Source: a virus (lineage: Duplodnaviria; Heunggongvirae; Uroviricota; Caudoviricetes). Taken from it: a stretch of 10,266 nt of DNA. The DNA lies in IMG/VR virus record IMGVR_UViG_3300028991_000027, positions 1 through 10,266 of that record, one strand, 5' to 3'. The translations under genes were made by a program, and so were the position numbers. Within the stretch, counting starts at the first letter, position 1; each line of letters starts with the position of its first letter. Of the stretch, positions 1 to 10,266 are shown one piece after another. Under the pieces are notes generated by a model, which saw nothing but the letters and a program-made list of their open reading frames with translations, had not been told where the DNA came from and ran no database searches.

Positions 1-496
1 CGAAAGTAAGCAATCAGCGGGGCCATCACATGCTGTTTCAGTGCCCTGCCCTTCGCCTCACAGCCATCATCTTTCGGGCGATACGGCCCCTGATAATGTT
101 CCGCGAACAGAATGCGCTCTGTGGCCGGAAAATACGCCCGCAGGCTTTCCTTGTTACACCCGTTCCAGCGTCCGGGCGGCTTTGCCCAGATGATATGGTT
201 CAGCACGTTAAACCGCTCACGCATCATGATTTCGGTGTCAGATGCCAGGCGATGCCCACAGAACAGGTATAGACTTCCTGCAGGTTTCAGCACCCGCCAG
301 AACTGCGCAAGACACTGGTCCAGCCACTTCAGGTAATCTTCATCACCCGCCCACTGGTTATCCCAGCCTTCGGGTTTCACTTTAAAGTATGGTGGGTCTG
401 TGACTATCAGATCGACAGAGTTTTCCGGTAAGGTCTGGATACCAGGCAATCAGCGTTGATTAACTCACAACTGGATATTTTTACAGTGTTAGCCAT
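1..496 (-). CDS. DNA methyltransferase, beta-class N6-adenine/N4-cytosine type; 3' end beyond window; N-terminus interrupted by an apparent -1 frameshift
   Basis: Minus-strand translation from ATG at 496-494 gives MANTVKISSCELINADCLVSRPYRKTLSI then TGA at 409-407. The -1 frame opens after a TGA at 452-450 and reads LPGIQTLPENSVDLIVTDPPYFKVKPEGWDNQW... with no stop down to position 1. DPPY (motif IV) near the N-terminus, preceded by an xxDCL and SVDLIVTDPPY context, is the beta-class arrangement. Not in the ORF track because it runs off the edge. Confidence 0.6.
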
Positions 497-646
497 AGAT
501 CAATAAGCACTTCTCTGATAGGCTCATACCGCTTTTGCGCAAAGCAGATGGGCCTGAGGTTTGCTTGTGACCCCAACGCATGAGCAGATGGCTGGCAGGT
601 GCCGCTAACACCCACCAGCCGCCCATTACCACAAATAAAAAAGCCT

Positions 647-823
647 TCACTGAGGAAGGCGTCTGTAACAACCGAACTGATAATCTGCCAGACCCGCCAT
701 AACCAGCTGGGTCAGTATTAACTGACAACGTTCGCGTGAAAGGTAAGTATTCTGCGCAATTTCCCCGACAGTCGCCGGTTCGGTGACGCTCAATTCATTA
801 AACACCACTCTGGCAGTTTCGGT
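647..823 (-). CDS. small hypothetical protein (59 aa from ATG at 823), possibly winged-helix DNA-binding
   Basis: Part of ORF 647..844. From the first ATG it reads MTETARVVFNELSVTEPATVGEIAQNTYLSRERCQLILTQLVMAGLADYQ, an HTH-like pattern. The AGGA directly abuts the ATG, so the ribosome-binding site is poor. It is the first ORF after the tR'-like terminator. Confidence 0.3.
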   Translation of the reverse strand, partial: TETARVVFNELSVTEPATVGEIAQNTYLSRERCQLILTQLVMAGLADYQFGCYRRLPQ

Positions 824-905
824 CATATCCTGCTGTTTTAGCAAGCTGAAAGACCGGTATTCACCGCCACCAGCGCGTTTACTGTACTGACGCGATTTCA
901 GTCAT

Positions 906-928
906 AAAAAACCCGCCTGGCGGCGGGG
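906..928 (-). terminator. rho-independent terminator (tR'-like) closing a short transcript from the late promoter
   Basis: Minus strand reads CCCGCC-gcca-GGCGGG followed by TTTTTTAT (plus-strand stem arms 912-917 and 922-927, A-run 906-911). About 65 nt downstream of the putative late promoter. Confidence 0.6.
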
Positions 929-975
929 TGTAAAAAATCTTCTAACGTCAGGCATAAAACGCCCATCGTTAGGGG

Positions 976-1003
976 GATTTACCACAGATTCGGGAAAAAT
1001 CAA
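976..1003 (-). promoter_or_regulatory. putative late promoter PR' (with expected Q-utilisation region) just downstream of the Q-like gene
   Basis: Minus strand: -35 TTGATT (plus 998-1003), 16-nt spacer, extended -10 TGgTAAATC (plus 976-984). It begins 5 nt after the Q-like stop codon and is followed by the terminator at 906-928, as in lambda PR'-tR'. Confidence 0.4.
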
Positions 1004-1008
1004 CAAAG

Positions 1009-1830
1009 CTATCTGGTCACCTTTTTCAGTTGTTGTTCTGCCCATGCTTCTTCAATATCAAACTGCACCACCAGCGTATCGTAAAAACGTTTAACTGTTT
1101 TTTTCCATGTATCAAGAGATATGGCATCGGTTACATTACATATGGCATTAAATGCCTCCGTTGAAGGTAATCTTTCATAGCCACGCCCACCACAACGCTG
1201 ACAGTTTCTGAAAACCGGCACACCCTGTTTTTCCGACTCTTCACGATGAATGGCAACACCGCGCCCACGACAATCTTTACAGGCTGTGGAAACCTCCCCC
1301 TTTCCGCTACACTCCGGACAGGCAACTTTTACCACCTCCCTGACTTTTTTCCATTCCTCCCAGTAAGACGGATACACGCCTTTTGTGCACTTTGCCCATA
1401 CTGGCGGCTTACCATCCGGATACTGGATCTTGTTTGTAAAAATCTCGCTTTCAATAAATTTTTTTCCGTGACAGCAGGGGCACTGTTTTTTGCTCGCCGC
1501 GCTACGGGCATAATCTTCAAACGCATACGAAGCCATAATGCGCATCACTGCCGGTTTTATTTCTGCCGGGAGTTTTCTTAACGCCGCCACGCAATCACAC
1601 CGACTGAGTGCATATTCTGTCAGCAATTCTGTTGCCCGCTCTCTGTCATTCATACTAATGCCCATTTTCCCAAGGAACGCAGAAAACCCCATCTCAGCCC
1701 GATTCTGTGTCATGCCCTGCGCTGCCATCACATCAGTGATACTCAGCGCATCTTTTGACGTCGAGGCAGAGGCATCTGTCAGGCCGGGGGATTTTGGTGA
1801 ATAGTACTTCGGTAAATCTTCCAGTTTCAT
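1009..1830 (-). CDS. late-gene antiterminator Q-like protein (273 aa) with four DnaJ-type CxxCxGxG zinc-finger repeats
   Basis: Complete ORF. Lies between rusA (ATGA stop/start overlap at 1827-1830) and the PR'/tR'-like pair. Cys repeats CPCCHGKK, CPECSGKG, CKDCRGRG, CQRCGGRG at aa 117-217. The Q assignment is mainly positional. Confidence 0.55.
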   Translation of the reverse strand: MKLEDLPKYYSPKSPGLTDASASTSKDALSITDVMAAQGMTQNRAEMGFSAFLGKMGISMNDRERATELLTEYALSRCDCVAALRKLPAEIKPAVMRIMASYAFEDYARSAASKKQCPCCHGKKFIESEIFTNKIQYPDGKPPVWAKCTKGVYPSYWEEWKKVREVVKVACPECSGKGEVSTACKDCRGRGVAIHREESEKQGVPVFRNCQRCGGRGYERLPSTEAFNAICNVTDAISLDTWKKTVKRFYDTLVVQFDIEEAWAEQQLKKVTR

Positions 1831-2201
1831 TTTTGGGCCTGTCCTTCATGCGTTATTTGGTAAATCTTCACACCCAGTCGTCCACCAGATACTGGCCGAC
1901 CACGTACAATATTGATTTCATCAAACTGCTCATCGTCCATTAACAGCCCTGCATGCGTCAGCGCATCCAGCGGCGCTTTCAGGATATTGTCCAGGTCACG
2001 ACGGCGCTTATCCGGTGGCTCTGCAATAATCCTGATTACCAGCCTTCCGGACAGGCTTAATTTCAGCCGCTGCTGGCGAACAATAAGCGCCACAGCCCGG
2101 CGATAACGCTTTCCCTCCTCCGAGATAAAATATGTACTGCCACGACGACGCCAGTAGGTGTTCACCGTTGGCGGGTAAGGTAAAACCAAATCTATGGGCA
2201 T
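1827..2201 (-). CDS. rusA: RusA-family Holliday junction resolvase (124 aa)
   Basis: ORF track protein contains RRRDLDN and surrounding sequence recalled as typical of RusA. ATG at 2201 is preceded by GAGGTG; its stop overlaps the Q-like start (ATGA). Confidence 0.85.
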   Translation of the reverse strand: MPIDLVLPYPPTVNTYWRRRGSTYFISEEGKRYRRAVALIVRQQRLKLSLSGRLVIRIIAEPPDKRRRDLDNILKAPLDALTHAGLLMDDEQFDEINIVRGRPVSGGRLGVKIYQITHEGQAQK

Positions 2202-2213
2202 CAGTCACCTCTT

Positions 2214-3263
2214 TTACCCAAGCACGCCTGTTGCGAAGGCGTGATCAAGAAAATGAAAAATTAACTCAACCTGGGAGCCGTACTTTTTCTCAAACTCCAG
2301 CGGGTCAGCATGAAGTTCGTTGTGGTGCTCCCGGCACAACGGTAGTGTGAAAATATCGTGGGCCTTTGTTCCCATTCCGCCCTGCCCATGGCCAATCAGG
2401 TGATGCGGATCATCAGCTGGCTTTCCACAACATGCGCACGGCTGCGTCTTAACCCAGCGTGTGTACTTTTCATTAACCCAGCGACGACGTTTAGGCCGTT
2501 TCATGAAAGATTCCGGAGACTCCGGATCAACGGCGATGCTTACTACCGTCTTTTCCTGTGGCGTGGTTTGTGGCTGGTGGGCGTGAAGCGGTAGCGCTAT
2601 GTTTTTTGTGCGCTGCTTCAGGATGCCGGTGGCGGTCTGCTCTCCCGGTATGATGTCGCTCTCACGGTATACGGAGCGGATTTTTTCCACCGGTAATCCC
2701 AGCGAACGACGCAATACAGACCCCGGAAGCGCATCAGCCACCTGATTGCAGACCGCCCACCAGGATAATTCGGCCAGCGATAACTCCCTCTCCTGCGTGC
2801 CATTCATTGCGTGACGGATGACGTCAATCATCCAGGCAGCCAGATTCTGCTGAGCAAGTTGCTCCAGTGAATCAGATGTCTGCTCCCGCAACTGGTTGTC
2901 GCAGTGCCAGCACAACACCATCGCGCCGGTACCGTAACGGTGAATGACGGTTTCGCTGTGATGATAATCGCCATGTGGCCACTGGCAGGATTTCACTTGA
3001 CGTAATAACCAGTCAGACAGTGCACCAGCACCACCTGCAGCACGGATCACCCGCTCATCACTGAAAAATGGCAGTAATGATTTATCCTCCACCAGCGGCT
3101 GGCGAACAGTGGGAACCGCTCCGGATGGCAGCGCCCGCATGTTTTTCGGTTCCGGCTCCACCAGCACCCTGCCGCAATGAAAAACCGGCAGTGATTCGCG
3201 ACCGGGCTTAAGGACCACCAGCCCGAGCTCCGGTACCAGAACAGGTCGAAGTAATACCCGCAC
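2214..3263 (-). CDS. DUF968-family phage protein (YdfU-like, 349 aa) with C-terminal HNH-type motif
   Basis: GTG start at 3263 preceded by GGAGG at 5 nt. C-terminal CACCGKPADDPHHLIGHGQGG...LCREHHNELH resembles an HNH zinc-binding nuclease motif. Length matches the DUF968 proteins of E. coli cryptic prophages as recalled. Confidence 0.75.
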   Translation of the reverse strand: MRVLLRPVLVPELGLVVLKPGRESLPVFHCGRVLVEPEPKNMRALPSGAVPTVRQPLVEDKSLLPFFSDERVIRAAGGAGALSDWLLRQVKSCQWPHGDYHHSETVIHRYGTGAMVLCWHCDNQLREQTSDSLEQLAQQNLAAWMIDVIRHAMNGTQERELSLAELSWWAVCNQVADALPGSVLRRSLGLPVEKIRSVYRESDIIPGEQTATGILKQRTKNIALPLHAHQPQTTPQEKTVVSIAVDPESPESFMKRPKRRRWVNEKYTRWVKTQPCACCGKPADDPHHLIGHGQGGMGTKAHDIFTLPLCREHHNELHADPLEFEKKYGSQVELIFHFLDHAFATGVLG

Positions 3264-3264
3264 G

Positions 3265-3537
3265 TTACCTCCAGATGCGTTGCTGGAATGTGCGGGACGG
3301 ACGCGGAGGGCGTTCGGAATAAGGAAGCCTGACAGAGATTATCCAGTGACGATAATCGAGACTGAGGGCTTTCTTAACCTCGTATCCGCGCCTGCGGTAA
3401 CACTGAATCAGCCATTCGGCCTGTTCTTCAGTGCATGGGGGATGCAGGTACCAGTGGGTTTTAAATACGTACGAATGCCGCCCCCGCTTAATGGCCGGGA
3501 CGGCTTCAGAATTGTGGGATTTTATATGTTGCGCCAT
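3265..3537 (-). CDS. hypothetical nin-region protein (about 90 aa from ATG 3537; ORF track extends to a TTG at 3585)
   Basis: ORF 3265..3585. Its stop lies 1 nt before the DUF968 GTG start, suggesting coupling. The TTG at 3585 sits almost inside the upstream terminator T-tract, so the internal ATG at 3537 (MAQHIKSHNSEAV...) is preferred. No family recognised. Confidence 0.4.
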   Translation of the reverse strand: MAQHIKSHNSEAVPAIKRGRHSYVFKTHWYLHPPCTEEQAEWLIQCYRRRGYEVKKALSLDYRHWIISVRLPYSERPPRPSRTFQQRIWR

Positions 3538-3600
3538 CGCAGCAGGTGTCAGTTGTTCAGGCTGACGGCGCGAATTGTAAGGCAATACGCCGGAATGTAC

Positions 3601-3628
3601 AAACAGAAACCCCGTCAGTAAGACGGGG
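3601..3628 (-). terminator. rho-independent terminator downstream of the OB-fold gene
   Basis: Minus strand: CCCCGTC-ttact-GACGGGG followed by TTTCTGTTT (plus stem arms 3610-3616 and 3622-3628). Confidence 0.5.
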
Positions 3629-3645
3629 ATAACCTGAACCGATTA

Positions 3646-3990
3646 CTATAATAATTTCAGAGTTTTTACATCCAGTTCAACACTGTTCAGGTCTTTATCA
3701 AGTTCCCCCTCAATTATTACCTTGTCTTTCGGAGAAACATTCTGCCCGGCCCATACACTTTTATCGATATCCGTGACAATGGTTCCGCTACTGTCGCGAA
3801 ACTCATAACGATCATCACCCAATTTTTTAACGATGTGCCCTTCAAGGATAACCCATGCCTCGTCCTTCTGTTCTTTTGCCTGCACTACTGTTGTTGAACG
3901 CTCTGCTTCAGACCCCAGAAAACCTCCCTGTTGTGCAAAAACGCCAAAAGACACGCAGGAAAAAAGGGCTGCGATTAATACTTTTTTCAT
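3646..3990 (-). CDS. YgiW/YdeI-family (BOF) OB-fold periplasmic protein with signal peptide (114 aa)
   Basis: Start taken at ATG 3990 (MKKVLIAALFSCVSFGVFAQQGGF...), preceded by GAGGA; the ORF-track N-terminal extension is not supported. QGGF, DDRYEFRDSSGTIVTDID and GELDKDLNSVELDVK match the YgiW/YdeI pattern as recalled. Flanked by its own terminator. Confidence 0.8.
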   Translation of the reverse strand: MKKVLIAALFSCVSFGVFAQQGGFLGSEAERSTTVVQAKEQKDEAWVILEGHIVKKLGDDRYEFRDSSGTIVTDIDKSVWAGQNVSPKDKVIIEGELDKDLNSVELDVKTLKLL

Positions 3991-4078
3991 TATCGTCCTC
4001 TTCAAGAAATTAACATGAACACTTGCATTGCAGCATATAAAATGCGGGTGCGTTGAGGATGCCTGACACATCAGAGGT

Positions 4079-4100
4079 GGCGAGGGATTTCTCCCTCGCC
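4079..4100 (-). terminator. stable GC hairpin at the 3' end of the hok transcript
   Basis: GGCGAGGGA-tttc-TCCCTCGCC, 8 nt past the hok stop codon. No clean U-tract on the minus strand, so it may be a 3' stabilising or fold-back element rather than an intrinsic terminator. Confidence 0.35.
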
Positions 4101-4107
4101 TGGTCTC

Positions 4108-4263
4108 TTACTTCTCAGATTCGTAGTCTACGAAGACAGCGACCTCCGTCTGGCCGGTTCGGATTCGTACCTCGCAGAGGTCTTTCCTCGTTACCAGTGC
4201 CGTCACTATGACGGTTAAACAGATGACGATCAGGGCGATTAACATCGCCTTTTGCTGCTTCAT
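4108..4263 (-). CDS. hok: Hok/Gef-family type I toxin (51 aa membrane peptide)
   Basis: Translated by hand from the minus strand: MKQQKAMLIALIVICLTVIVTALVTRKDLCEVRIRTGQTEVAVFVDYESEK. It is shorter than the ORF-track cutoff. Hydrophobic N-terminus and the TRKDLCEV...GQTEVA core match the Hok family. Confidence 0.9.
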   Translation of the reverse strand: MKQQKAMLIALIVICLTVIVTALVTRKDLCEVRIRTGQTEVAVFVDYESEK

Positions 4264-4321
4264 AGTCTGCTTCTCCTTGACCTTTCGGTCCGTAAGAGGC
4301 TAACCTACGTTTGTGAAGCAT
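4115..4321 (-). CDS. mok: mok-like overlapping reading frame (68 aa) upstream of and overlapping hok
   Basis: ORF 4115..4321 begins with ATG 58 nt upstream of hok and overlaps it in another frame, as mok does in hok/sok loci. The protein itself is low-complexity; the call is positional. Confidence 0.4.
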   Translation of the reverse strand: MLHKRRLASYGPKGQGEADYEAAKGDVNRPDRHLFNRHSDGTGNEERPLRGTNPNRPDGGRCLRRLRI

Positions 4322-4380
4322 AGATTGGGCCTCAGATTAATGTTAAGCGTCTTGCAGGACGCGTAATGTTAACTGGGGCT
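4290..4380 (+). ncRNA. sok: possible sok-like antisense RNA region (position inferred, boundaries not defined)
   Basis: In hok/sok loci the antisense RNA overlaps the mok start on the opposite strand. Here I find only a weak plus-strand promoter candidate (TTGACC 4277-4282, poor -10) and a small hairpin GCGTC-ttgcag-GACGC at 4347-4362. It may be degenerate. Confidence 0.2.
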
Positions 4381-4439
4381 TTTCTCTGTCTGCCTTACGG
4401 CGGCATGCCCGAGGCAGACAGCCTCAGGCACCCGCAGCA

Positions 4440-4467
4440 ATTCTACTTTACTCTCGTTTTACTGCAA
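4440..4467 (-). promoter_or_regulatory. putative sigma70 promoter for hok/mok mRNA
   Basis: Minus strand: TTGCAG (plus 4462-4467), 16-nt spacer, TAGAAT (plus 4440-4445). This gives a leader of roughly 110 nt before the mok-like ATG. Confidence 0.45.
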
Positions 4468-4571
4468 ACCTTTTATCCCGGGCGCATATTACCCGATATG
4501 GGAACTCACACATCGAAATGAATTCGCTTCCATTGCCCCCTCAATCACATAACCAGACACATAAAATGTAC

Positions 4572-4601
4572 TTGCCATCTGAAGAGACAATAATCTAAAC
4601 T
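4572..4601 (+). promoter_or_regulatory. putative promoter for the plus-strand DUF1640-like gene
   Basis: TTGCCA (4572-4577), 18-nt spacer, TAAACT (4596-4601), followed by SD AAGGA (4623-4627) 9 nt before the ATG at 4637. Confidence 0.3.
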
Positions 4602-4636
4602 CAGAAGATCCCTCAATAGCATAAGGAATTGATATT

Positions 4637-4924
4637 ATGGGTCACGTCTATTTTGACACATTAAAATTTGCCGAAGCACTGGAAAAAGCTGGCATGCCAG
4701 CTGAACAGGCGCGCGCCATTTCCTCCGCAATAAAAGATGCCCATGAGGCAATTGAAGTTGCAACTAAAAATGACCTTCACTACGCAAGCTCAGAACTTAA
4801 GCGCGATATTCTGTCAATTAATGAGAAAATTGACCACCTCATATTTCAAGTAACTTTTCGGTTAGGGGTAATAATTTCTATATGTATAGTAGTTGTATTT
4901 GCCATAATTAAAATGAATATGTAA
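4637..4924 (+). CDS. small coiled-coil protein with C-terminal transmembrane helix (DUF1640-like, 95 aa)
   Basis: Complete ORF with a good SD. Protein MGHVYFDTLKFAEALEKAGMPAEQARAISSAIKDAHEA... ends in the hydrophobic LGVIISICIVVVFAIIKM. Opposite strand to all neighbours, with its own terminator. Family name is from memory. Confidence 0.65.
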   Translation: MGHVYFDTLKFAEALEKAGMPAEQARAISSAIKDAHEAIEVATKNDLHYASSELKRDILSINEKIDHLIFQVTFRLGVIISICIVVVFAIIKMNM

Positions 4925-4937
4925 CAACCAGCCATAT

Positions 4938-4976
4938 AACGGGCTGATATTTATTATATCAGCCCGTTGTCTTTTT
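4938..4976 (+). terminator. rho-independent terminator after the DUF1640-like gene
   Basis: AACGGGCTGATAT-ttatt-ATATCAGCCCGTT followed by GTCTTTTT. The minus-strand copy lacks a U-tract. Confidence 0.7.
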
Positions 4977-5000
4977 AAATAAGACAAGGCGTAACAGTTG

Positions 5001-5456
5001 TCAAAGAAATATTAATTGCTTCATTCTGCATGACATTACCGCCCTTTCTGTCGCCCTCATGATATATTTAAGGTGTAGACACGCCTCCGCCATTCTGATA
5101 ATCGGGTCTTCTGAAGTCATCTTTTCTGGCGAATCGCAGTCAGCACCACATTCAGTAATGCGTTCATAATCAAAACGAGCGGTGATTTTATGTGCACCAA
5201 TCATTTGCGTAAGCGCATCTGTCAACTCTGCAATGCGCTTATCTTTGGCTTCCAACTCGCCCGGCAGCACCAGTGCTACCTTTAGATTAAAGGTAGCAAT
5301 GAAGTCCGCGTTATTTTTCAGAATATGGTGCACAATAAGTACACCATTGAGTTTTACCTTGTAACCTCGTGCGCCACAATGCGGTCTATATGAGCTCCAG
5401 TCTCCCCCACGTTGCTTTTTCTGAAGCGTCACGCATCTTCCGGTAATTAATTTCAA
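5001..5456 (-). CDS. hypothetical protein (up to 151 aa); last gene of the minus-strand operon before the moron island
   Basis: ORF 5001..5456. The start is a TTG overlapping the DUF4406 stop (TTGA), with AGGAGA 10 nt upstream; the first in-frame ATG is far downstream, so the true start is uncertain. Six Cys and an R-x6-H near the C-terminus (RMAEACLH). No family recognised. Confidence 0.5.
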   Translation of the reverse strand: MKLITGRCVTLQKKQRGGDWSSYRPHCGARGYKVKLNGVLIVHHILKNNADFIATFNLKVALVLPGELEAKDKRIAELTDALTQMIGAHKITARFDYERITECGADCDSPEKMTSEDPIIRMAEACLHLKYIMRATERAVMSCRMKQLIFL

Positions 5457-5752
5457 TCACTGGTTGTCTCCTGGAAAATAACTGCATGCCCCAATTTCTC
5501 CGCCAGTGCCAGCTCTGCCTTAGCGCCCGCTGACCGCTGCCAGCCTTTCAGCATGTAAATCGCATCCACACAACGAATCATTGCCATGCAAATATCCATG
5601 TAATGTGGCTGAGTCAGCCCGTCCGGAAGTACTGCCGGGTTTAAAACGGTATGCCCTTCCCGTTTCAGCGCTTCTTCCGCCTTGTGAAACGCATCACGGT
5701 TGAAATTTTCATATCCCGTCATCGGACCAGCGATATAAATTCTCACCCTCAC
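5453..5752 (-). CDS. DUF4406-family protein (nucleoside 2-deoxyribosyltransferase-like fold, 99 aa)
   Basis: GTG start preceded by AGGAGG at 8 nt. N-terminal RIYIAGPMTGYENFN...VLNP matches the remembered DUF4406 signature. Confidence 0.7.
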   Translation of the reverse strand: MRVRIYIAGPMTGYENFNRDAFHKAEEALKREGHTVLNPAVLPDGLTQPHYMDICMAMIRCVDAIYMLKGWQRSAGAKAELALAEKLGHAVIFQETTSD

Positions 5753-6003
5753 TCCATCACCTCCTGAAAATTACCCTGACAGAACGCCAGTACACGCTGC
5801 ATGACTTCGCTATTTCGGCACTCACAGCAAATTATGTTCTTATGCCTGTCATAGCGGCGTATTTCTCCGTCTGGTAACTTTCGAATCAATGTCTGGTCAG
5901 TTGTTTTCTCCGGTGTCTTACGCCATACGCGATACACCTGTTCAGATGCAAAAACACCGTATTTACCGGACATGTATAAATCGCCACAAGCCAGTACATC
6001 CAC
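5749..6003 (-). CDS. hypothetical ORF, possibly the C-terminal part of a frameshifted gene whose N-terminus is ORF 5886..6143
   Basis: ORF track. Its stop overlaps the DUF4406 GTG start (GTGA), but neither the GTG at 6003 nor the ATG at 5973 has a recognisable SD, and it overlaps ORF 5886..6158 by about 118 nt in another frame. Confidence 0.3.
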   Translation of the reverse strand: MDVLACGDLYMSGKYGVFASEQVYRVWRKTPEKTTDQTLIRKLPDGEIRRYDRHKNIICCECRNSEVMQRVLAFCQGNFQEVME

Positions 6004-6143
6004 AAGGCAACGTCTGACTGAATGCCAGCCTGTCCCGTCGCTCTCTCCAGTTGTGATATCGTCATGCGTTCATTTTTGCGTACCAACCCGATAATTCGGG
6101 CCTTCAGTTCTTCACGCTGTTCGTGTGTAAAAGGTTTCGCCAT
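5886..6143 (-). CDS. small hypothetical protein with HTH-like N-terminus (85 aa from ATG 6143)
   Basis: ATG at 6143 is preceded by GGAGG and follows the upstream stop by 15 nt. N-terminus MAKPFTHEQREELKARIIGLVRKNERMTISQLERATGQ looks like real protein; the C-terminal 40 aa are W/Y/C/H-rich and resemble out-of-frame translation. Confidence 0.4.
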   Translation of the reverse strand: MAKPFTHEQREELKARIIGLVRKNERMTISQLERATGQAGIQSDVALWMYWLVAIYTCPVNTVFLHLNRCIAYGVRHRRKQLTRH

Positions 6144-6158
6144 AAGCGCCTCCGGCAA

Positions 6159-6884
6159 TCACTTTTCCGACACAATACGACCGGATGAATCGACAATCTG
6201 CCGAACAATATCCCGGTGCTTGTTCAACTCCCGCAACGCGGCACAGACTCGTTCCCACTTCTGGACATCACTTTTCGCCCGGCGCAGCTCGCGGTTAGCC
6301 ACATGCAGCGATGGTAGAATCAGGTCATCTGCTTTCGTTTCGGTGACCGATGGCTGTAACTTCACAATGTCTTCCACGATTTCTGTTTTCATTTCTTCCT
6401 GTGTCGTCGTTTCCTGGACTGGTAACGCAACACCTGCTGGCTGAGGAAAGGCTTTACCATCGGTTTCCGCTACGGATGCCGCTTCCGGCTCTGCCGGTAA
6501 ATCAGCGCCCGGTATGCAGTAACGAAATTTACCGCCCTGATTCACGCGAATCAGACGCCCTTTGCTGATTGCCATTGCCAGCGATGAATTCGCCCGGCGG
6601 GAGGTAATTCCGAACATCAGTGCCAGTTCATCCGCCGTTTGTGGGCCATGTTGTTCAATCGCCTCTGTCAGCATTTGCGCTGTCACTTTCGGTACCGGTG
6701 ACACCGGTTCACTTTCACCAGCCTGAGTCAGCCACCACATCGACCCCTTGTTATCCGCTTCACCGCGGCGCTTCAGTTTCCACAGTTCGTTGACCGCCTC
6801 TTCACGGCTGATTCCAAGGCGCGATGCCACTACCTGTGAAGAGGCTTTTTTCAGTGCTTTCAGTGCGTCAAATACGGTTTCCAT
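6159..6884 (-). CDS. phage protein with two N-terminal winged-helix-like domains, acidic linker and C-terminal coiled coil (241 aa from ATG 6884)
   Basis: ORF 6159..6902; the ATG at 6884 with GGAGG upstream is preferred over the TTG at 6902. Two HTH-like segments ([27 protein letters not shown] and [28 protein letters not shown]). Sits directly after the DnaC-like gene. Function unknown. Confidence 0.6.
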
Positions 6885-6905
6885 TAAAACGTCCTCCGAC
6901 AAAAA

Positions 6906-7652
6906 TTACTTCACAACCCTCTGATTGCTGACATTTGGACGCCAGCTATCCCAGTTAAACGTCACCCATCGACCACCGTTCATGGTCATGCGGTCCATAA
7001 TCCTCTCACCGAGAAGCGTACTCATTGCGGCATGATTCAGGTTTGTTAACATCCCGACACTGCACAGTGATGCTGTCCGGCGATCAATTATCTGGTGCAA
7101 TACCACCTGCTCGTTTTTCGTCTCACGCTGAACGCCTATTTCATCCAGGACCAGCAAATCAACCCCGCAAAGCTCCTGTAAAAATTTTTCCCCGGACTGG
7201 CCGTTGTCGTAGCTGTCATGCAACACACTCATGACGTCAGACACGGTGACGATAATCACGCTGCTCCCCTTCGCCATCAGCCGGTTGCCCATCGCCGCTG
7301 CAAGGTGATTTTTCCCGGTGCCGGTTTTACCGCTGAACACAAAATTCGTGCACCCGGTCATCAGTTCGTCAGCGATGGATTTTGCCTGGCTCAGCGCGTG
7401 TTTTTGCCCGTCGTTCTGCACCTGATAATTCGCAAACGAGCATTTGCTGTGCAGAGGCTGGATGCCCGAACGATTCAGGATTTTTTCCACCCGCAACTGG
7501 CGATTCTGGCGGTTAATCTCCTCGCTGCGTTTTCGTCCTTCAGCAAGCTGCCATTCCCGCCACTCCTCCACCGTCCGGTACGGTGGAACCGCCCCCTGTG
7601 GTGCAAGTCTGCGAATACGTTCAAGAACCCCGGCTGCCGCAATGTTTTTCAT
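6906..7652 (-). CDS. DnaC-family helicase loader (phage replication protein P analogue, 248 aa)
   Basis: Walker A FVFSGKTGTGKNHLAAA, Walker B DLLVLDEIGVQ, and a C-terminus (MLTNLNHAAMSTLLGERIMDRM...FNWDSWRP) close to E. coli DnaC as recalled. ATG at 7652. Confidence 0.9.
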   Translation of the reverse strand: MKNIAAAGVLERIRRLAPQGAVPPYRTVEEWREWQLAEGRKRSEEINRQNRQLRVEKILNRSGIQPLHSKCSFANYQVQNDGQKHALSQAKSIADELMTGCTNFVFSGKTGTGKNHLAAAMGNRLMAKGSSVIIVTVSDVMSVLHDSYDNGQSGEKFLQELCGVDLLVLDEIGVQRETKNEQVVLHQIIDRRTASLCSVGMLTNLNHAAMSTLLGERIMDRMTMNGGRWVTFNWDSWRPNVSNQRVVK

Positions 7653-7658
7653 GCCACG

Positions 7659-8627
7659 TCACCCCCTGAATCCAGGCGGTATTTCAGTGTCCGGTTCAGA
7701 AATGTGATTCACGCAACGCTGCGCGGGCGAACGCCCCAGGCGGATAACCAGTTCATCCCATTTTTCCCGGAGTTTTGCCGGACTCATGATGTTTTTTACC
7801 CAGAACGAATCCCGCTGGACACGCCCAAACATTTCACAAATCTGCCGGTGACTACGTCCATCCAGCATACGCATCATGCGCACATCATTCGCCCAGGTCG
7901 TCCAGTTAGGTTCTCGGGGGCGTGACACCTCACCATCATCACTGGCGGCCTGTTCATACAACGCCACAACCCGTCCCCAAATCCACTGCGCACAGGCGAC
8001 ATCCTCACGGGTACCCCACTGTCGCTTCGGTACATTCCAGGTATGCGCATCCGGGTGTTTCTCCAGAAATCGCTCAACTGGTGATGATTGTTTTTCGTCC
8101 GGCAGTGAAACGTCCGGACAAGAAGATCTTTTATCTGACGGATCAGGTTTTAATACTGACGGATCGGGGTCAATCATCGCCCCCCTAATCGGCAGTTTTT
8201 TATCAACCGTTGATCCATCAAAATTTGACGGGTCAACCGTTGAGGGGTCAATATTTGACGGGTCAACTGTTAACGGGTCATTTTTTGCCGGGCTAATTTT
8301 TCTTTTCGGTTTATATGACTCACGCGCCGCCGCCGCAGCTGCTTCGAGTTTTTCCACATTAAGCCGATAGATATTGCTTACATTACGCCCACCGACCTTA
8401 CGCTCTTCCTTCGTCAGCCAGCCCTCTTTCGCCAGTTCTGCAATAGCCGATTTCACGGTGGATTCACTTCTTGCACCGATCTGACGCCGGATAGTTTCAA
8501 TGGCAGGCCATGACACGCCCTCGTCATTGCTGTAGTCTGCTAGACGGGCCATCACTGCCACCCGGGATAAGATCATGCCGGTGAAGGCGCATCCTTCCCA
8601 GACAAGACCATGAAGCTTGCTGCTCAT
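7659..8627 (-). CDS. replication initiator, lambda O-like (N-terminal winged-helix domain, repeat-encoded linker, C-terminal domain; 322 aa from ATG 8627)
   Basis: ORF 7659..8642; the ATG at 8627 preceded by GGGGG is preferred over the GTG at 8642. It lies immediately upstream of the DnaC-like gene, and the iteron repeats fall inside its linker (DPLTVDPSNIDPSTVDPSNFDGSTVD), as in lambda O. Confidence 0.75.
   Translation of the reverse strand: MSSKLHGLVWEGCAFTGMILSRVAVMARLADYSNDEGVSWPAIETIRRQIGARSESTVKSAIAELAKEGWLTKEERKVGGRNVSNIYRLNVEKLEAAAAAARESYKPKRKISPAKNDPLTVDPSNIDPSTVDPSNFDGSTVDKKLPIRGAMIDPDPSVLKPDPSDKRSSCPDVSLPDEKQSSPVERFLEKHPDAHTWNVPKRQWGTREDVACAQWIWGRVVALYEQAASDDGEVSRPREPNWTTWANDVRMMRMLDGRSHRQICEMFGRVQRDSFWVKNIMSPAKLREKWDELVIRLGRSPAQRCVNHISEPDTEIPPGFRG
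8137..8320. repeat. iteron-like direct repeats plus AT-rich tract: putative origin of replication inside the O-like gene
   Basis: A 20-bp repeat TTTGACGGGTCAAC(C/T)GTT(G/A)A at 8224-8243 and 8254-8273. The GGGTCA core recurs at about 15-bp spacing (around 8166, 8230, 8244, 8260, 8275), with GACGGATCA variants at 8137 and 8158. An AT-rich stretch follows at 8281-8320. Confidence 0.6.
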
Positions 8628-8649
8628 AAAACCCCCGAACACCGTGCTT

Positions 8650-9075
8650 TTAGTGCATCACCACAGCATTCCCTGCCGGGCCGCCGCGATTCATCTGGTC
8701 ATACAAAACAACCGCTGACGCAACAAAATCGTCGACATCCTTCACCAGCCGATCCCGCCGTTCGACGATCTCACGGTAATACTCAGAACTGTGGCTGCGC
8801 ATACGGGCCACCAGCAAAGGCGGCATCGCCTTTTCGATCGCTGGTAACAGAGCCTGAATTTTTTCAACAGCATCAGGGGTGTCTTTATCCAACCAACGGA
8901 AAATTTTCTGGGTATTACGGGCCAGGGCTTCCGGATGACTGTCGTCGTACAGTTCCGGGAACGTCATCCCCAGCTCGAAATACGCTTTGGTAATTTTCGC
9001 AGCCGGTACTTTTTCGCCGTCCGGATGCGCCCAGGCATTCATCGCCATGCGGATGTGCTCATGCTTGATTTTCAT
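8650..9075 (-). CDS. YdaT-family protein (141 aa), second gene of the cro-side operon
   Basis: Complete ORF beginning MKIKHEHI...; ATGA overlap with the cro-like stop. Family assignment is from remembered similarity to Rac YdaT. Confidence 0.65.
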   Translation of the reverse strand: MKIKHEHIRMAMNAWAHPDGEKVPAAKITKAYFELGMTFPELYDDSHPEALARNTQKIFRWLDKDTPDAVEKIQALLPAIEKAMPPLLVARMRSHSSEYYREIVERRDRLVKDVDDFVASAVVLYDQMNRGGPAGNAVVMH

Positions 9076-9299
9076 GAATCACTCTTCCTTTCGCTCTGAG
9101 TGGTATCCTTCTTTTTGTAAAGCTCTGGGTTCAAAGATAATTTTCCCTTGGAGTATGCAGCAGCTTCCGCAGCTCTCCCTTTCGGAACTATTTCACCGGG
9201 GCGCTTACGCCACATGTAAATAGCTTCGCGGGTTATCCCATAAAAATCAGCGACCCTCTGAACAGAGCCAAAAAACTGAACAAGTTCATCAACTCGCAT
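9072..9299 (-). CDS. Cro-like HTH regulator, YdaS family (75 aa)
   Basis: ATG at 9299 preceded by AGGAGG. HTH segment VADFYGITREAIYMWRKR. Divergent from the CI-like gene across the operator region. Confidence 0.75.
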   Translation of the reverse strand: MRVDELVQFFGSVQRVADFYGITREAIYMWRKRPGEIVPKGRAAEAAAYSKGKLSLNPELYKKKDTTQSERKSDS

Positions 9300-9312
9300 T
9301 TCATCCTCCTAA

Positions 9313-9379
9313 AATCTAAGTATTTTTAGATTACAGGATAATTTTTTTTAGGTCAATGCAATCTAAAATAATTTATATT
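9313..9379. promoter_or_regulatory. OR-like operator/promoter region between the cro-like and cI-like genes
   Basis: O1 AATCTAAgtatttTTAGATT (9313-9332) and O2 AATCTAAaataatTTATATT (9360-9379). Minus-strand PR candidate: -35 TTGACC (plus 9351-9356), 17-nt spacer, -10 TAATCT (plus 9328-9333) overlapping O1. Plus-strand PRM candidate: -10 TATATT (9374-9379) overlapping O2, with a poor -35. Confidence 0.6.
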
Positions 9380-9395
9380 CAACTCGCGGGAGAAA

Positions 9396-10043
9396 ATGAT
9401 GGAAAGCCTTGGCATCAGGCTTAAGAAACTCAGAAAAGATAAGGGACTCACCCAAGTAGAACTGGGTAAGCTTTCAGGCGTGACCGGGGTTACTATAGGG
9501 TACTGGGAGAAAGATCTAAACGAACCCGGCAGCAAAGCTCTAAGTAAGTTAGCCCAAGCATTAGGAACTACTGAGTCCTATCTCCTGTATGGAGTATCGT
9601 CTCCTGAACTATCTTTTGTGCAGAGCAATCCAGGCACCAAGATCCCCTACTTTTCGTGGGGTGACGCGATTTCTTTCCTAATCTTAGAAGGAGAGAAAAC
9701 AATGGGAAATGTCGATAGGATCACCACATTCTTTGATGTAGTGGAAGGTGATTTTGCCGTTTCAATGCCTGATGACACTATGCATAACCCCTCAGGGTCG
9801 CCAAGTATCCCAGTTGGTGCCACTGTGATCCTAAGACCAGGAGAAAGTTATAAAAATGGCAGTATCGTCGCTGTAATAGTTCCAGATCCTCTTACAAATG
9901 AACCGTCTATGACTATAAAAAAATTAGTTATTGATGGAAAACTTGTGTATTTAAGCCCTCTCAATCCGCGCTATCAATCATCCTTGCTTACGCCAGAGTG
10001 TAAAATTGTTGCCGTAGCAAAAGGTGTACAGTTCAACCTATAA
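9396..10043 (+). CDS. CI-type prophage repressor (N-terminal HTH, C-terminal S24 LexA-like peptidase domain, 215 aa)
   Basis: HTH GLTQVELGKLSGVTGVTIGYWEKD. C-terminal domain contains candidate Ser and Lys motifs (GDFAVSM, IKKLVIDGKLVYLSPLNPRY). Divergent from the cro-like gene and flanked by operator-like sites on both sides. Confidence 0.85.
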   Translation: MMESLGIRLKKLRKDKGLTQVELGKLSGVTGVTIGYWEKDLNEPGSKALSKLAQALGTTESYLLYGVSSPELSFVQSNPGTKIPYFSWGDAISFLILEGEKTMGNVDRITTFFDVVEGDFAVSMPDDTMHNPSGSPSIPVGATVILRPGESYKNGSIVAVIVPDPLTNEPSMTIKKLVIDGKLVYLSPLNPRYQSSLLTPECKIVAVAKGVQFNL

Positions 10044-10064
10044 CCCTGCCATGTTCTTGAACTT

Positions 10065-10092
10065 AAGGTCGGTTATGTCGACCTTTTTTTTA
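10065..10092 (+). terminator. rho-independent terminator after the cI-like gene
   Basis: AAGGTCG-gttatgt-CGACCTT followed by TTTTTTT, 22 nt after the stop codon. Confidence 0.65.
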
Positions 10093-10110
10093 AATTAATT
10101 TAGATTCCTC

Positions 10111-10139
10111 TTGACTATAAAACTAAATACTTTTAGATT
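10111..10139 (+). promoter_or_regulatory. PL-like promoter with OL-like operator, directed rightward out of the window
   Basis: -35 TTGACT (10111-10116), 17-nt spacer, -10 TAGATT (10134-10139). Operator AAACTAAatacttTTAGATT (10120-10139) matches the OR consensus at 6 of 7 and 7 of 7 half-site positions; another TTAGATT sits at 10100-10106. Confidence 0.5.
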
Positions 10140-10235
10140 TGTTGTATACCAACCCACCCCGCTCCACAGAACGTCGGGCAATACCTCGAGTTACCCGGCA
10201 GTGGTCAGGGGTTAAGTAGCCAGCCCGAGGCGTAT

Positions 10236-10266
10236 GAACATGACGGCGGGAACACTTTGTATAACA
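10236..10266 (+). CDS. 5' end of an unidentified plus-strand gene running off the right edge
   Basis: ATG at 10236 preceded by GAGG 4 nt upstream, about 95 nt after the PL-like promoter. Only 10 codons (MNMTAGTLCI) are visible. Confidence 0.2.

Follow-up and report, generated by a model that had tools for sequence, protein, structure and literature searches.

How can a temperate phage carry a DNA methyltransferase gene whose close relatives are deleterious when expressed constitutively, and what would keep such a gene silent? The question is raised by one end of a 10,266-nucleotide (10.3 kb) stretch of caudoviricete DNA (IMG/VR record IMGVR_UViG_3300028991_000027, positions 1 to 10,266; hereafter the window), which, on the minus strand, represents a lambdoid prophage segment comprising immunity, replication, nin and Q. 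A preliminary description had placed here the beginning of a late operon, opening with a small helix-turn-helix (HTH)-type open reading frame (ORF) followed by an orphan methyltransferase gene, and had likened the pair to the controller-protein arrangement of restriction–modification systems. The layout stands, the late operon being Q-dependent, and the pair proves to be conserved across Enterobacterales; the likeness to controller proteins does not stand, as set out below. All coordinates are window positions and the module is read on the minus strand, on which those given earlier all hold. In that direction the Q gene (1830–1009) is followed by the terminator tR′ (927–905), the small ORF (844–647), a second terminator (660–633), a spacer (638–497) and the methyltransferase ATG at 496. 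The spacer specifies a conserved, structured leader RNA, which we think probably keeps the methyltransferase untranslated.

The methyltransferase reading frame runs off the window. Its main part there (1–443), which contains the DPPY motif, matches Pfam N6_N4_Mtase (PF01555, 2.2e-17) and is 92% identical over 166 aa to M.EcoGII, whose reference sequence was taken from the supplement of the SUPREM paper. The full-length homologues L002 and L084 contain FMGSGST (FxGxG) in addition to the N-terminal DPPY, and the gene at 496 can thus be assigned by homology to the M.EcoGI/M.EcoGII family of beta-class N6-adenine methyltransferases. A sequence search of solved structures with the methyltransferase returned beta-class enzymes (RsrI, CcrM and others) and no close homologue. 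In the work of Murray et al. (2018; PMC5778455) M.EcoGII modified adenine whatever the surrounding sequence, and by homology to this characterized enzyme the same would be expected of the family member here. The genes for M.EcoGII and its paralogue M.EcoGI lie in prophages of E. coli O104:H4 and are silent in the lysogen, their constitutive expression is deleterious, and a ‘very similar’ enzyme is present in phage 1720a-02; Murray et al. suggested that the enzyme protects progeny phage DNA from host restriction (PMC5778455). Methylome work on Shiga toxin-producing E. coli likewise described such homologues as ‘nonspecific’ and inactive under laboratory growth (PMC6602927).

A structured leader before the methyltransferase start codon

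The gap between the stop of the small ORF and the methyltransferase ATG is exactly 150 nt (646–497), as described earlier, and the leader occupies 142 nt ending at the start codon (497–638). Between E. coli and Salmonella, Enterobacter, Rosenbergiella or Proteus the identity of the spacer is 0.71–0.89, whereas in the same comparisons the fourfold-degenerate sites of the flanking genes are saturated, with an identity of 0.08–0.54; the spacer is the most conserved part of the module. Because it contains 1-nt indels, it is not coding. A covariance model (R1), built from a 31-sequence MAFFT alignment, matched exactly once per locus, in 98 of 100 sources at E<1e-10 and always ending at ATG+6, with weak matches at the same position in Gilliamella and Photorhabdus. 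Among viral contigs the 5′ motif of the leader was followed 130–133 nt downstream by the methyltransferase in 112 of 116 cases; searches of these contigs with both proteins gave only near-identical E. coli phages, which contribute association counts and little covariation. A permissive scan of positions 1–1300 against Rfam 15 (E<=1) gave no match in the spacer and only a sub-threshold STnc100 hit on a terminator (18 versus 47 bits), and a scan of the whole window at gathering thresholds gave only sok. No description of an RNA motif or of regulation upstream of M.EcoGII-type genes was found in the searchable literature.

The leader is predicted to fold with a minimum free energy of −63.6 kcal/mol (z = −3.5), and RNAalifold and single-sequence folds gave the same helices in several genera. 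A GC-rich hairpin, H2 (620–609/601–590), is closed by H1 (626–621/585–580). Helix H3 joins 573–563 (GGGUCACAAGC) to 508–497 (GCUUAUUGAUCU), directly abutting the AUG at 496, and encloses a long hairpin, P4/P5 (555–542/535–520). An alternative helix, P2 (588–580/568–560), cannot form together with H1 or the lower half of H3. In the 31-sequence alignment 92.9% of the cells of the consensus were paired, against 31–42% with slid partners, and 12 pairs had changed on both sides, against 4.9 ± 1.5 in shuffles. A model-based alignment of 63 distinct sequences, which leans towards the structure of the model by construction, gave 91.8% paired against 32–43%, and 13 double-change pairs against 5.4 ± 1.5 (0 of 500 shuffles).

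H3 is 94% paired and covaries, with pairs 77:139, 78:138 and 79:137 changing from AAG/CUU to GGA/UCU in Proteus and Morganella, and the strongest single covariation in the data set falls in P2 (57:81; UA 37, AU 10, CG 6, UG 4). G·U pairs are frequent (for example 29:45, GU in 27 of 63, and 72:145, GU in 44 of 63) and fit only the methyltransferase-sense strand. In Gilliamella, H2 is a wholly different sequence (GACUGAUACAUG/CAUGUAGCAGUC) that forms the same hairpin, and the GGUCA box CUGGUCAU has its partner in AUGACCAG, a stretch containing the start codon. No Shine–Dalgarno sequence lies within 12 nt of the methyltransferase AUG in any lineage. Either the leader alternates between two folds, or P2 forms together with a pseudoknot in which its GGUCA loop pairs with the UGAUC of the start site; under either option the ribosome-binding region is predicted to be paired in at least one conserved state.

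The near-perfect 15-bp palindrome noted earlier (GCTTTTGCGCAAAGC, 531–545) lies where it was reported and forms the apical part of P4/P5, with its tip at 541–536, although only a 10-bp core (TTTGCGCAAA, 534–543) is perfect and the outer GC/GC match at a 1-nt offset. The window contains nine perfect 10-bp palindromes, compared with 10.1 ± 3.3 in dinucleotide shuffles, and the bare palindrome is therefore not beyond chance; what gives it significance is solely its conservation and covariation in homologues. There the hairpin is widely kept while the sequence of its tip changes between genera, and in Photorhabdus and Xenorhabdus the hairpin is absent, the small ORF and H1/H2 being kept. The converse also occurs, the hairpin being kept where the small ORF is missing (L006–L011, L013, L020, L042, L059, L064, L071 and L072).

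Three further observations concern the leader. The GATC at 499–502, positions −7 to −4 relative to the methyltransferase ATG, is a Dam site present in nearly all leaders and is part of the 3′ strand of H3 (UGAUCU). Transcription of mom in phage Mu is Dam-dependent, and by analogy a link between host Dam and the methyltransferase gene is conceivable. In a recombinant form (L266, L305, L331, L351 and L179) the small ORF and only H1/H2 of the leader are kept, with a breakpoint right after H2, and the methyltransferase is replaced by AT-rich DNA, a TATAAT and an unrelated 237-aa ORF (MVVVCSVIMVCSPINIF...). The viral contig L309 carries the 5′ motif twice (402–422 and 3388–3408), ~3 kb apart, which suggests tandem methyltransferase modules.

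Terminators, the small ORF and the state of this copy

The tR′-like terminator reported earlier was recovered behind Q by a terminator scan as an intrinsic terminator (905–927; CCCGCC-GCCA-GGCGGG with stem 927–912, plus the T run TTTTTTA), and its sequence is identical in the six contigs that share the Q protein of the window (L083–L088; the exact-Q contigs). Upstream of it, a putative late promoter, pR′, was read manually from the sequence (976–1003; TTGATT, 16 nt, TG-G-TAAATC, with an extended −10); like lambdoid pR′, it lies after the Q stop and ahead of the terminator. Together, pR′ and tR′ would give a constitutive short RNA of ~65 nt.

The same scan found a second intrinsic terminator (633–660; GCCTTC-CTCAGT-GAAGGC with stem 660–643, plus TTTTTTATTT), which had been overlooked in the preliminary description and whose stem (GCCTTC/GAAGGC) encloses the stop codon of the small ORF. 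Alignment with the Stx2 phage Stx2_EH1910 and phage phiP27 shows a conserved stem with a variable loop, and a Salmonella locus (L014) has an equivalent terminator, so that the same pair of terminators brackets the small ORF there. Scans of the window, phiP27 and Salmonella called no sigma-70-like promoter inside the module.

The small ORF (647–844) had been given as 59 aa, which is the length from the internal ATG at 826; from the TTG at 844 the product is 65 aa, with the same end at 647. It belongs to phrog_331 (PHROG, 1.4e-37), of unknown function, a conserved family of 63–65 aa with 334 database homologues, whose names are at most automatic (for example ‘TrmB family’ or ‘DprA-like winged helix’). 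Substitutions between homologues cluster at codon position 3, and the ORF is therefore a real gene, as the earlier description had supposed. The assignment to the HTH type also stands, in the form of a winged helix: an AlphaFold model (predicted local distance difference test score 92) has three helices and two strands, and the protein is no Xre-type C (controller) protein. Pfam gave only below-threshold winged-helix matches (TrmB 0.0026, MarR and DprA_WH), no zinc finger, and no HTH_3/Xre match even at E<=1. Foldseek against the PDB returned generic winged-helix domains (O-methyltransferase dimerization domains, OhrR, MotA and SelB), all at E>1e-3. The protein is not basic, with a net charge of about −1.

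The small ORF lies ~150 nt upstream of the methyltransferase in ~55 genome loci, in 73 of 74 viral contigs and in seven of eight places in Klebsiella. In about a quarter of the loci it is missing and unrelated genes precede the same spacer (L006–L011, L013, L020, L025, L036, L042, L059, L064, L065, L068, L071 and L072). We take the small protein to be a frequent but apparently dispensable partner of the leader/methyltransferase module; it could modulate the leader, or be expressed at a low level in lysogens through leakage at tR′.

Both genes are damaged in this copy, as assessed by alignment of the window with Stx2_EH1910 and phiP27. Relative to the Stx2 phages and phiP27, a 61-bp deletion (junction at ~845–840, with TGCT microhomology) has removed the ancestral ATG of the small ORF (MLKQQDM...) together with the purine-rich sequence upstream of it, leaving the in-frame TTG at 844 by chance. 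The deletion is common to all six exact-Q contigs and the body of the ORF is intact; the protein may still start at TTG 844 or ATG 826, or its loss may be tolerated. The methyltransferase has lost 4 bp (AATT, codon 19) between 442 and 441, so that the frame opened by ATG 496–494 stops at TGA 409–407 after 29 codons and the DPPY-containing rest lies in another frame, for which TTG 448 is the sole in-frame restart candidate; no intact methyltransferase frame is found in the window. One exact-Q contig (L084) does not differ from the window, shares its 4-bp deletion and has no called methyltransferase gene, whereas two others (L087 and L088) differ only by an intact AATT and encode a 352-aa product. 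Because the two lesions are present in, or vary among, the exact-Q contigs, they are real alleles and not read errors, and the frameshift is recent. The module is thus decaying in this window, with an ORF without its ATG and a frameshifted methyltransferase. Elsewhere, in a Klebsiella-type prophage (L368, 3195–3883), the small ORF is present and no methyltransferase gene was called downstream, apparently a second, independent case of methyltransferase loss with the small ORF kept.

A proposed layered off-switch and its rivals

We favour, with moderate confidence, the reading that the conserved leader acts in cis to keep a toxic M.EcoGII-type enzyme untranslated, as part of a layered off-switch; layered control would be expected because the enzyme is presumably toxic. 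Three barriers are envisaged. RNA polymerase from pR′ would stop at tR′ unless modified by Q, polymerase reading through would meet the second terminator directly after the small ORF, and the transcript would then carry the ~140-nt leader. In the leader the conserved GGUCAC-AAGC box would pair with GCUU-A-UGAUCU, which directly precedes an AUG lacking a Shine–Dalgarno sequence, and this pairing would occlude the ribosome-binding region by default. The covarying, mutually exclusive P2 suggests a switch between closed and open states. A bolder version, which we consider less probable and on balance unlikely, makes the spacer a new class of riboregulator for M.EcoGII-type enzymes, closed as H1+H3 or as the P2-loop pseudoknot, open as P2, and triggered in trans. 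The trigger could be a late-phase signal, the methyltransferase (M.EcoGII-type enzymes also methylate RNA) or the winged-helix protein in the role of an RNA-binding activator like Com. If this were true, a toxic genome-wide adenine methylase would be made only minutes before packaging.

Several points weigh against occlusion by the leader and the wider off-switch. Translational repression by the leader is a prediction from its structure, and either of the mutually exclusive H1/H3 and P2, or a pseudoknot, could be the functional fold. Several covariation events come from one clade (Proteus and Morganella), so that few of them are independent, and the shuffle control ignores phylogeny. A variant (L023) lacks the 3′ strand of H3, which indicates that occlusion is not universal. 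The putative pR′ was not called by a consensus promoter scan, and no experimental demonstration of an anti-restriction role in phage infection was found in the literature on the enzyme family. Finally, the tips of P4/P5, compared at window positions 536–541 and the equivalents in L015–L022, L058–L064, L071 and L072, are self-complementary to the centre in every lineage (GCGC, TGCA, TCGA and GATC; AGCGCT, GTGCAC and GTCGAC). An RNA hairpin does not explain palindromic tips, which hints at an additional function at the DNA level; a protein site on DNA, loop–loop dimerization and template-switch mutagenesis are possible explanations.

This symmetry, which is not required of an RNA loop, speaks for an explanation in which the palindrome at the tip of P4/P5 is an operator for a dimeric protein, be it the winged-helix protein or a host factor, and controls transcription into the methyltransferase, the RNA helices being secondary. 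The conserved GATC at −7 to −4 of the ATG and the winged helix, a common DNA-binding fold, would also fit. We nevertheless judge it improbable. The half-sites are not conserved between genera while the hairpin is; read from the opposite strand, or within a cruciform, the G·U pairs (for example 29:45 GU 27 and 72:145 GU 44) would turn into A·C mismatches; and H2, P2 and H3, far from the palindrome, covary as well. The scans found no promoter downstream of the palindrome to regulate, and the small protein is not basic and is dispensable. The narrower proposal carried over from the preliminary description, that the small HTH protein recognizes the palindrome as an operator akin to a C-box and sets the timing of the methyltransferase and of a restriction gene beyond the window, is far less probable still. 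A small ORF of the DNA-binding type does lie directly upstream of the methyltransferase with a dyad-symmetric sequence between them, and the pair is strongly linked in the viral contigs and in Klebsiella (73 of 74 and seven of eight, as above), but the fold is a winged helix and not Xre/HTH_3, the C-box GACTnnnAGTC is absent anywhere in the window, the palindrome hairpin and the ORF each occur without the other, and a terminator separates the ORF from the methyltransferase. Nor was a restriction endonuclease gene found downstream in any homologous or exact-Q locus examined; where such a gene had been thought possible, further left, homologous loci instead contain tRNAs, stx2AB, nanS-p and holin/endolysin genes.

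Two other accounts remain at the RNA level. The leader might be structured without switching, as a site at which RNase III or RNase E processes or stabilizes the long late transcript and not as a regulator of initiation. H1 and H2 form a near-continuous helix of ~18 bp that resembles an RNase III substrate, and long phage late transcripts are commonly processed, as in the lambda N leader and the T7 early RNAs. We regard this as unlikely, if less so than control at the DNA level, because conservation extends to the helix next to the AUG, which in Gilliamella has moved onto the AUG itself, because the missing Shine–Dalgarno sequence points specifically to translation initiation, and because two mutually exclusive covarying helices suggest a switch. 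Alternatively, the spacer might encode a short peptide that is translationally coupled to the methyltransferase. In E. coli-type sequences a 45-codon frame opens at ATG 626–624 and ends in ATGGCTAA (TAA 489), overlapping the methyltransferase start at ATG 496. This frame is broken by 1-nt indels, meets a stop after seven codons in most genera, encodes a peptide that is not conserved in Proteus and is not preceded by a Shine–Dalgarno sequence at ATG 626; there are almost no substitutions of the third-position type, indicating conservation of nucleotides and not of codons. With 1-nt indels and non-conserved peptides we rejected the 45-codon frame as an upstream ORF, and coupling through it is hardly credible.

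Neighbouring genes and related systems

On the immunity side, the window contains a cI-like repressor gene on the plus strand (9396–10043), after which come cro-, O- and DnaC-like genes, a hok/sok module, DUF968, RusA and then Q. The hok/sok-type toxin–antitoxin module lies inside the prophage at 4108–4433 on the minus strand, with a Hok-family ORF of 51 aa (4108–4263) and the sok antisense RNA (4261–4433; Rfam RF01794, 103.9 bits). Q itself is a protein of 273 aa (Pfam PF03589 Antiterm, 4e-51; PHROG ‘anti-termination protein Q-like’, 1e-113). A PF03589 Q, an intrinsic terminator behind it and a lysis cassette in the exact-Q contigs identify the region as the promoter-proximal end of a lambdoid late operon. 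The lysis genes sought left of the window are thus present in homologous and exact-Q loci; in the latter the downstream genes are three tRNAs, nanS-p, DUF1378, DUF826, holin and Rz1, without stx.

In Salmonella, Proteus, Photorhabdus, Rosenbergiella, Gilliamella, Enterobacter and Klebsiella the module has a Q-type antiterminator gene on one side and holin/endolysin genes on the other, and the upstream antiterminators at these loci fall into three unrelated Pfam families. Homologues of the 1.1-kb region match in over half of the complete E. coli genomes (2920 of 5426). The closest described arrangement is the Q-to-stx region of Stx2 phages (phiP27 L23/L24, 1720a-02 and Stx2_EH1910; 91–93% DNA identity), which comprises Q, a 65-aa hypothetical protein and a 352-aa DNA methylase. 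Beyond the methylase, the Stx2 phages and phiP27 have tRNA genes, stx2AB, nanS-p and a lysis cassette, and a DNA match to 1720a-02 shows the same order of Q, small ORF, methylase and stx2; unlike these, the contigs nearest to the window lack stx and carry tRNAs and nanS-p. Neither the gene order nor the enzyme is new, both being annotated already. What appears to be new is the structured leader with its arrangement of two terminators, for which there was neither an Rfam match nor a description in the searchable literature.

M.EcoGII, the prototype of non-specific adenine methyltransferases, is widely used for chromatin and RNA footprinting, and how its carriage is tolerated has so far been explained only as ‘prophage genes are off’. 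If the leader and the double terminator act as proposed, they would provide a concrete, testable mechanism for this silence, and the leader would represent a new cis-regulatory RNA family in lambdoid late operons, including those of Shiga-toxin phages, in which pR′ and stx2 flank it; modulators of read-through or of RNA stability at the leader could then bear on toxin expression. For the window itself, the outcome is a decaying copy of the module and no restriction system.

The predicted pR′–tR′ RNA resembles the short RNAs of other lambdoid phages (lambda 6S RNA; StxS, PMC7547250; HnrS, PMC13502914) in having a late promoter and an intrinsic terminator directly after Q. HnrS is a 66-nt Hfq-binding prophage small RNA from the late regions of the Sakai prophages Sp9, Sp10 and Sp12 (PMC13502914), and the ~65 nt predicted here are close to this, in a comparison of length and location. 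StxS belongs with a 144-aa Q933-type Q and a 258-nt pR′–tR′ unit (PMC7547250), unlike the Q here, and was rejected as the identity of this RNA because of the different Q type. The gene at 496 shares with M.EcoGI and M.EcoGII the beta-class motif order, a prophage location, silence in the lysogen and the lack of a partner endonuclease, and differs in that the window copy is frameshifted after codon 18; the upstream leader, second terminator and small ORF are not described in the literature found on these two enzymes.

The C proteins of type II restriction–modification systems are of the Xre type. The module resembles such systems in having a small HTH-type ORF beside a methyltransferase gene and a dyad-symmetric sequence nearby, and differs in the winged helix, in the lack of a C-box and an endonuclease, and in the palindrome, which follows the ORF and does not depend on it. 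A functional parallel is com–mom of phage Mu. There a stem in the leader buries the start site of mom, and Com, an RNA-binding zinc-finger protein encoded by a gene that overlaps mom, binds this leader and opens the stem. The two have no sequence or family relationship, and the module is not a member of that system, since the small protein here is a winged helix and no zinc finger, its gene does not overlap the methyltransferase but lies a terminator and 150 nt away, and it is dispensable in many loci. What they would share is a toxic DNA-modification enzyme made late, a start region held in an mRNA stem (as predicted here) and a small ORF immediately upstream.

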